Part shown: piece after piece, positions 19,423-20,212 of the stretch
Layout of the letters: every line of letters starts with the position of its first letter
How positions within the stretch are numbered: position 1 is the stretch's first letter
Origin: Eledone cirrhosa
Lineage: Eukaryota
DNA: 64,000 nucleotides
NCBI GenBank assembly: GCA_964016885.1
Contig: OZ024741.1
Span: 83,824,001 to 83,888,000, forward strand
Direction of reading: 5' to 3'
Made by a program: the position numbers and the translations under genes
Notes under the pieces: model-generated
The model's database searches: none
Told to the model about the DNA's origin: nothing
Seen by the model: the letters and a program-made list of their open reading frames with translations, nothing else

Positions 19423-20212
19423 TACATTATGAAGAGAGAAGAAACATTTAGATATAATTAGTAATAAAATGTATCATACCTAAACTGTTCCTAGATTCCT
19501 CGACTACGTAGTTTCGTGGCATAAACAAAAACAATACATCATAAAGATATAGAGTCCCTGCGAGGTCTGCCGAGTTATCAAGAGGATACCTCATTTTACT
19601 AGCTTCAAGAACGCGTCCACACGACGTGAGAAAGAATCCCAAAAGGCGGAGGGGGAGATAGTCACGCGATATAACGGTCGAGAAACAGAGCTAAGCCTCT
19701 TATAACCCCGAAGAAAATACCACGGAGGCGGAGGGGGTATTTATATCGAAGCCGCAGAAGAGGTGGTGAAGGGGGCGAGAAGTATGAGTAATGGCAGCTT
19801 TTCAGCAGTCACCACACTTCAAAGATTACTCAACCAGAGGGAGTTATTAACAATATATTTAGAAACACACAGATACATGCGGACACACACATATACATGA
19901 ATGCATCTACACCCAACCGCGAGTTAAGGGTGCCAACCTCACCGATGTTGATCAATGAATGACTGGGACAGTCCAATCCAGTTGAACTAGACTGAACCAG
20001 TATCAGAGTTAAAAATACATTATGAAGAGAGAAGAAACATTTAGATATAATTAGTAATAAAATGTATCATACCTAAACTGTTCCTAGATTCCTCGACTAC
20101 GTAGTTTCGTGGCATAAACAAAAACAATACATCATAAAGATATAGAGTCCCTGCGAGGTCTGCCGACTTATCAAGAGGATACCTCATTTTACTAGCTTCA
20201 AGAACGCGTCCA
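19423..20212 (-). mobile_element. Retrozyme-like element: 593-bp unit x1.33 with two HHRs (19497-19586, 20090-20179)
   Basis: About 197-bp direct repeat at 19423 and 20016; CCUC-UUGAUAA-..-GAAA-CUACGUAG-UC-GAGG; (TA)n flanks. Confidence 0.75.

Follow-up and report, generated by a model that had tools for sequence, protein, structure and literature searches.

Metazoan non-LTR retrozymes have been described with units of 220-245 nt in coral, 350-390 nt in mussel and 330/350 nt in axolotl (PMC7229834; 10.64898/2026.07.22.740005), and their copying by PLEs has so far been proposed, in the available text of the papers cited here, from co-occurrence and pseudo-LTR homology only. PLEs leave insertions that are truncated at the 5' side and form partial tandems, with an inverted 5' copy, a one-ended tail and a bias towards microsatellites (PMC8557442); the tail is accounted for by initiation at two internal sites (PMC11167929). 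Natural covariation from C3-G8 to U3-A8 is known in several hammerheads, with activity in vitro cited (PMC3088659, Perreault 2011), and approximately 1,300 U3-A8 hits, missed by the authors' first descriptor, have been reported in Schistosoma (PMC4209133). The same source describes the G10.1-C11.1 pair as highly conserved, and pairing through a palindromic helix III as a known design of dimeric hammerheads.

Here we analyze a 593-bp repeat of Eledone cirrhosa, found in a window of 64,000 nucleotides (contig OZ024741.1 of assembly GCA_964016885.1, positions 83,824,001 to 83,888,000 of the forward strand). Like the metazoan non-LTR retrozymes, it forms short arrays of non-coding tandem units with one type I hammerhead each and a G+C content below 45%, and it shares with them a palindromic helix III, a highly paired predicted circle and the presence of PLEs in the genome. 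Its unit is longer than the 170-400 nt of PMC7229834 and lies within the 51-972 bp of 10.64898/2026.07.22.740005. It differs from these elements in its U3:A8 core (a variant that neither source, in its available text, mentions for retrozymes), in a helix II about 46 nt longer, and in that no homology to a PLE pseudo-LTR was found. With the hammerheads discovered by way of the Cercyon PLE of Schistosoma mansoni (PMC4209133) it has in common the U3-A8 covariation, an animal genome and a PLE context; the Schistosoma motifs, however, are minimal, heterogeneous and mostly single, whereas those described here are large, homogeneous and part of a tandem non-autonomous unit. The compensatory change is the same as in PMC3088659, where the examples are scattered, as compared with thousands of copies here. 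EN+ PLEs (Neptune/Nematis) and the Poseidon PAc resemble the repeat in several respects: they target microsatellites or AT-rich DNA, are truncated at the 5' side, form partial tandems with an inverted 5' arm, start reverse transcription at two internal sites and carry a hammerhead upstream of the ends (PMC8557442; PMC11167929). Different from these, the 593-bp unit encodes no protein, is repeated as a whole, and has a tail (the distance between its two ends) of 163 nt, against 30-40 bp in PMC8557442.

Literature searches returned no description of the 593-bp family; further U3:A8 cases may exist in the supplementary material of the papers cited. Relative to the available text of those papers the repeat is a new, well-supported family, with a core variant that had already been published (PMC3088659; PMC4209133). 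By mapping its copies in the genome—assisted by an analysis of its hammerheads, of a sister family and of candidate helper elements—we arrive at the view, which we hold with good though not full confidence, that it is a non-coding family of recent origin and high copy number, fixed for the U3:A8 core, and likely a PLE-mobilised non-LTR retrozyme, for which self-cleavage is predicted.

The 593-bp unit and its two hammerheads

Read on the minus strand from 20212 to 19423, the locus holds 1.33 units of a direct repeat with a 593-bp period: one full unit and about 198 bp of the next, so that a stretch of about 200 nt recurs at 593-nt spacing, with (TA)n tracts on both sides. The coordinates, strand, period and core given by an earlier, sequence-only reading of this DNA proved correct when re-read from the sequence. 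Both repeats read CCUC-UUGAUAA...GAAA-CUACGUAG-UC-GAGG, and U3 and A8 of the UUGAUAA core are present in each, as that reading had claimed. The features of the locus are as follows.

19423..20212, minus strand: one-armed insertion (locus L001), 5'-truncated, stopping at the family's fixed end A
19385..19424, no strand: (TA)n target tract, 3' junction
20212..20334, no strand: (TA)n target tract, 5' junction
19422..19445, minus strand: fixed 3' end A, at unit position ~198, 80 nt past the cut
19848..19870, minus strand: fixed 3' end B, at unit position 360-365, internal in the window copy
19502..20094, minus strand: predicted 593-nt RNA monomer, between two predicted cut sites
20090..20179, minus strand: upstream type I hammerhead, intact, with U3 at 20174, A8 at 20169 and the predicted cut at 20095^20094
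20115..20160, minus strand: helix II extension, predicted as 7 bp plus 6 bp with internal loops
20096..20105, minus strand: palindromic helix III/loop 3, ACUACGUAGU
19497..19586, minus strand: downstream hammerhead with U3:A8 core (19581, 19576) and the predicted cut at 19502^19501
19738..19745, minus strand: TATAAATA, followed by GC-box-like repeats, a candidate internal promoter

End A consists of a pyrimidine tract followed by (TA)n, and has its equivalent internal site at about 20015; end B serves the other arm in two-armed insertions of the family. The monomer has a G+C content of 42% and a longest ATG frame of 48 codons, and neither a coding frame nor an RT + GIY-YIG frame lies between the repeats. 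Folded as a circle, it reaches a predicted energy of -169 kcal/mol, which none of 40 shuffles matched (z -4.8). The TATA at 19738-19745, a possible internal promoter element, is not conserved in the 591-bp subfamily or in the sister family described below.

The upstream motif is built from helix I (UCCUC/GAGGA), UUGAUAA, helix II (GU-c-GGCA/UGCCAC), GAAA, helix III and UC. It has the core of a type I hammerhead (U4 G5 A6, A9 and G12 A13 A14), together with A15.1-U16.1, H17 and an open helix I, which gives three helices round the core, and it carries the G10.1-C11.1 pair, as does the family. What the sequence-only reading took for a long loop of helix II is instead a predicted 13-bp paired extension with internal loops; 8 of its 13 pairs vary on one side among the 22 aligned variants described below and yet still pair, and one of the pairs is seen as U-G, C-G and U-A. 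The palindrome of helix III can pair with the copy of a second ribozyme, with a predicted energy of -12.9 kcal/mol.

Over 197 nt the two repeats differ at a single base, 19574 (C) as against 20167 (G), which is position 10.1 of the hammerhead: the downstream copy reads CUCGGCA rather than GUCGGCA, and its G10.1-C11.1 pair is lost. G10.1C was found in 1 of 228 hammerhead copies from fetched loci, some of which overlap. Loss of G10.1-C11.1 slows hammerhead cleavage. Our hammerhead descriptor picks up the upstream motif and not the downstream one, and the predicted pairing of the first pair of helix I falls from 0.94 upstream to 0.35 downstream, where CUCGGC pairs with the cut region in the predicted fold; the downstream hammerhead is thus predicted to misfold. 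Given G10.1C, the window copy is probably not efficient at monomer release, and is probably a poor source element. The earlier proposal that two ribozymes delimit a 593-nt monomer stands as far as the cut sites are concerned, which are 593 nt apart, and for this copy is weakened by the change in the downstream ribozyme.

Rfam reported no hammerhead over the window at gathering thresholds, nor over 19300-20300 at E up to 10, where it gave only microsatellite-driven miRNA hits. The standard models accordingly miss the UUGAUAA hammerhead, which bears out the expectation that CUGANGA searches would overlook it and extends this to Rfam. Such a miss is expected from the variant core and the long helix II, and is no argument against the hammerhead fold.

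Several other elements were observed in the window. A type I hammerhead with the canonical C3:G8 core, whose helix II has a U-U mismatch at its base, lies 120 bp away (19252-19301, plus strand) and is part of another repeat, present in several fetched loci. Three identical C3:G8 hammerheads at 30909 and 31375 (minus strand) and 31652 (plus strand), two of them 466 bp apart and one inverted, probably form the two arms of an array from a different retrozyme family; single C3:G8 motifs of other families lie at 6072 and 152 (both minus strand). Two long frames, 15385-17268 and 35173-36552 (both plus strand), have no Pfam match and share motifs by eye; the former is weakly similar to the protein of the L051 PLE described below (E 3e-4), and the two may represent a divergent PLE family. 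Fragments of LINE type, bearing endonuclease or RT domains, occupy 26169-28799 and 47217-49588 (minus strand) and 53765-62978 (plus strand). A PLE-like layout recurs at 21951-22821, where a 315-bp partial tandem is accompanied by an inverted arm and where the descriptor found no hammerhead.

The U3:A8 core within and between families

A 26-nt word containing UUGAUAA has 5,820 exact matches in the 3.0-Gb genome and its reversed control none, so the motif is not due to chance. UUGAUAA is therefore the family consensus genome-wide, a check that had been proposed with the sequence-only reading. The alternative of a CUGAUGA consensus from which the window copy had decayed is ruled out by the same 5,820 matches, set against the absence of any CUGAUGA revertant. 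Counted with exact flanks, and with the sister family outside the counts, position 3 is changed in 10 copies (4 C, 4 G and 2 A, all with A8 and none reading CUGAUGA), position 8 in 13 copies (8 G, 4 U and 1 C) and the free position 7 in 9 copies. With 5,820 copies intact, changes are as rare at position 7 as at positions 3 and 8; since positions 3 and 8 vary like the free position, there is no signal of selection on the 3:8 pair within the family. The low rate at all three positions is what neutral change would leave behind if the family spread recently. At three pairs of loci (C19:18237715/18238306, C5:39920686/39921283 and C6:57419566/57420130), neighbouring units share a rare core change (U3:G8, U3:U8 and C7), as expected if both derive from one template. 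In contigs of six sequencing runs no listed change was seen at core positions 3 or 8, at thresholds of 10% in X1, X4, X5 and X6 and 1% in X1-X3, with a depth below 10 for organisms B and C; the run contigs give a weak hint of relatives.

The unit search of the genome gave 2,367 candidates, 40 of which were scored. Besides the 593-bp class there are subfamilies of 591 and 595 bp, as well as intermediates at 81-91%. In 22 aligned variants, chosen by us from 88 distinct ones, the 3:8 Watson-Crick pair is U3:A8 in all 22 rather than the canonical C3:G8, and the pairs of the hammerhead fold form in 99.2% of 630 cells, as compared with 32-58% for slid pairings. Covariation did not rise above that of shuffles (24-69 of 500), and 1 of 29 pairs was changed on both sides, counted against each pair's commonest form.

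A sister family of about 580 bp (L121-L140; 1,836 candidates, 40 of them scored) has the same core, palindrome and two-end layout, with a body that is 24% diverged. One of its units (L135) is identical to the 593-bp unit at 451 of 593 positions (76%), the catalytic domain, with boundaries that we set ourselves, being conserved at 43 of 45 positions versus 408 of 548 elsewhere (Fisher p 0.0005). One sister copy (L130:1135-1242, minus strand) shows a compensatory change from U-A to C-G in helix I; it carries a deletion in the hammerhead. When positions 3 and 8 were left free in the descriptor, all fetched loci together yielded 62 distinct U3:A8 and 40 distinct C3:G8 motifs, and 9 unpaired motifs, 8 of which were mutants fetched on purpose. 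The idea that the U3:A8 pair is a selected variant thus finds no support within the 593-bp family, and is supported only indirectly by the sister family and by the restriction to C3:G8 or U3:A8 cores across families.

Insertion architecture and candidate helper elements

BLAST maps were made of the 30 best-match loci and of 40 loci from the first 100 word matches, the latter comprising 20 with several hammerheads and 20 with one (one locus, L087, holds one insertion twice). They show short arrays, dispersed on many contigs, of about 1-6 head-to-tail units with variable 5' ends and with 3' ends at unit position ~198 or 360-365 that run into (TA)n. In two-armed insertions the second arm is inverted; at the 40 loci drawn from the word matches, 23 of 24 such insertions pair end A (~198) with end B (~361), and 16 of 17 single arms stop at one or the other. 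Two fixed ends, 5' truncation, an inverted arm and a microsatellite target together form the signature of PLE insertion. The units also have the sequence features of a non-LTR retrozyme: tandem and non-coding, each with a type I hammerhead and a low G+C content, dispersed in many copies with marks of retrotransposition and without a flanking pair of LTRs.

Units inside one insertion differ by a mean of 2.0 bases (38 pairs, with one outlier of 9), and those on opposite arms of one insertion by 0-2 bases, as compared with a mean of 17.2 differences (247 pairs, minimum 4) between insertions of one length class. Such near-identity is what a single template for each insertion would leave; a circle is the simplest such template, although a homogeneous tandem source could account for it too. 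Joints in the run contigs that go back 587/593 were discarded as evidence for a circle, as DNA tandems give them too.

Among 10,597 GIY-YIG candidates in the genome, 150 of which were scored, one locus (L051, C1:145869000-145877000) contains a near-complete PLE with a 938-aa RT + GIY-YIG frame. This frame has a CX4CX2C motif ahead of the nuclease (a CX2-5CxxC linker is assigned to Neptune and Nematis in PMC8557442), lies between two minimal U3:A8 hammerheads with UUGAAAA about 4,980 bp apart, and is inserted in (TA)n. A search pattern combining U3:A8 and a short helix II gave 6,986 matches, and the 100 matches listed all belong to the L051 family, which has two main 3' ends, ~76 and 143 nt past the cut. 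U3:A8 motifs of other kinds (UUGAUAA-UGCA and UUGAAAA-GAUGG) were seen at further GIY-YIG loci. U3:A8 is common among the PLE-linked hammerheads of this genome, and several other repeats keep C3:G8.

The 593-bp unit showed no sequence homology to PLEs in 40 GIY-YIG loci of the 10,597 candidates, so the helper of the family is one that we infer; the L051 family has only a generic likeness to it in ends and core. A short-helix-II pattern designed for a helper gave 5 matches, all of them the internal UUGAUAA in the family's own helix II extension, and a helper search of metagenome contigs gave no match.

Predicted cleavage, a proposed transposition cycle and competing explanations

If the hammerhead cuts, some copies may begin exactly at the cut. 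We found 25 matches that start at the first base past it, all true junctions (22 without duplicates), versus 13 and 4 matches for single-position controls; at 3 of the cut-site junctions the partner arm also stops within 2 bases of the cut. By hand count, the cut accounts for 19 of the 100 matches listed (of 133), while 16 upstream positions average 5.1, so that cut-site 5' ends occur at ~3.8 times the upstream rate (Poisson p ~2e-6, positions being uneven, with a highest upstream count of 12). Compared with downstream positions the cut shows no clear excess, with 8 of 84 usable matches versus a mean of 5.4 over 14 positions (highest 12), from 100 matches listed of 262 after removal of 16 with indels or ambiguity. 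The excess over upstream positions is a hint only of cleavage, and stalling of copying at a helix would also explain it. Nearly all copying runs through the cut site, as on a circle or on uncut RNA, since only ~25-35 arms stop there versus at least 5,820 intact hammerhead copies.

Published experiments make the activity of the U3:A8 core, which the sequence-only reading took as retained, a matter of context: PMC3088659 cites activity, whereas in the one type III construct of Roberts 2023 (PMC9901934) only the C3G/G8C swap gave rescue and U3:A8 did not. Minimal PLE hammerheads cleave poorly in vitro (PMC4209133), and of nine Xenopus retrozyme dimers eight did not cut and one did (10.64898/2026.07.22.740005). 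Insertion by a PLE in vitro needed no hammerhead cleavage, hammerhead mutants having no effect, and that study saw no RNA ends at the hammerhead cut (PMC11167929).

We propose that a transcript of at least two units would be cut after GUC by its hammerheads, probably acting as dimers through the palindromic helix III, and that a host ligase would close the 593-nt monomer into a circle; both steps are modelled on the retrozymes of mussel, coral and axolotl. A PLE protein would then cut a (TA)n tract and use each of the two DNA ends to prime reverse transcription, starting at internal sites that lie 80 and ~243 nt past the ribozyme cut; copying round the template would give tandem, 5'-truncated and often two-armed insertions. 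The insertion architecture of this cycle is what the genome displays, and its enzyme and circle are what we infer. With U3:A8, positions 3 and 8 still form the Watson-Crick tertiary pair that the active core requires, and the variant probably came down from PLEs in which it was already in use.

A rival account accepts mobilisation by a PLE and assigns little or no cutting to the hammerhead: the templates would be uncut linear transcripts from tandem source loci, and the motif structural or protein-binding. The scarcity of arms stopping at the cut, the PLE insertion experiments of PMC11167929 and the unrescued U3:A8 construct of PMC9901934 speak for it; against it, the catalytic domain as a whole, with G12-A13-A14, the UH site and the 3:8 partners, is kept across 24% divergence. 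Near-identical units in both arms also fit a circle better, as a tandem source would need constant homogenising, and the hand-counted excess of 5' ends over upstream positions points the same way; on balance we judge this account rather improbable.

Much less probable still is that the 593-bp unit represents the long pseudo-LTR of an unseen autonomous PLE and the arrays its truncated fragments. Fragments do dominate PLE copy numbers (PMC4209133) and the array ends are of PLE type, yet the arrays reach about six units head to tail without any intervening coding frame, the 40 GIY-YIG loci yielded no homology, and at the 20 single-hammerhead loci the 5' side passes into (TA)n, an inverted arm or other flank within one unit. 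That the repeat is an ordinary DNA-level satellite with a decayed or chance hammerhead look-alike is scarcely credible: local duplication of whole insertions (L087; L185-L186; L193-L194) speaks for it, whereas dispersed short arrays whose 3' ends are fixed and 5' ends variable, the inverted arms, and a complete hammerhead kept across families are contrary to it, and the end architecture largely excludes it.

The reading we prefer thus remains that of a PLE-mobilised non-LTR retrozyme. An extension of it, which we put forward only tentatively and consider unlikely as a whole, is that cleavage by the U3:A8 hammerhead does take place in vivo and that the motif marks a lineage, in which a (TA)n-targeting, zinc-finger-linker clade of PLEs changed its core to U3:A8 and spawned the retrozyme. 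The copies would then record the entire cycle: two fixed internal priming sites, a 593-nt circle copied from either side of a DNA break, and now and then a run-off that stops precisely where the ribozyme cuts. If this were true, more than 12,000 hammerheads of this genome (5,820 and 6,986 pattern matches) would lie outside standard CUGANGA censuses, and the core type could pair retrozymes with their helper PLEs.

The family offers, at high copy number, a natural case in which to test whether a full-size hammerhead with U3:A8 can cleave, a point on which mutagenesis results in the literature conflict from one context to another. It also gives a gauge of what CUGANGA and Rfam searches miss, with at least 5,820 copies in addition to the matches to the second U3:A8 pattern, and provides genomic footprints for PLE-driven copying of retrozymes.
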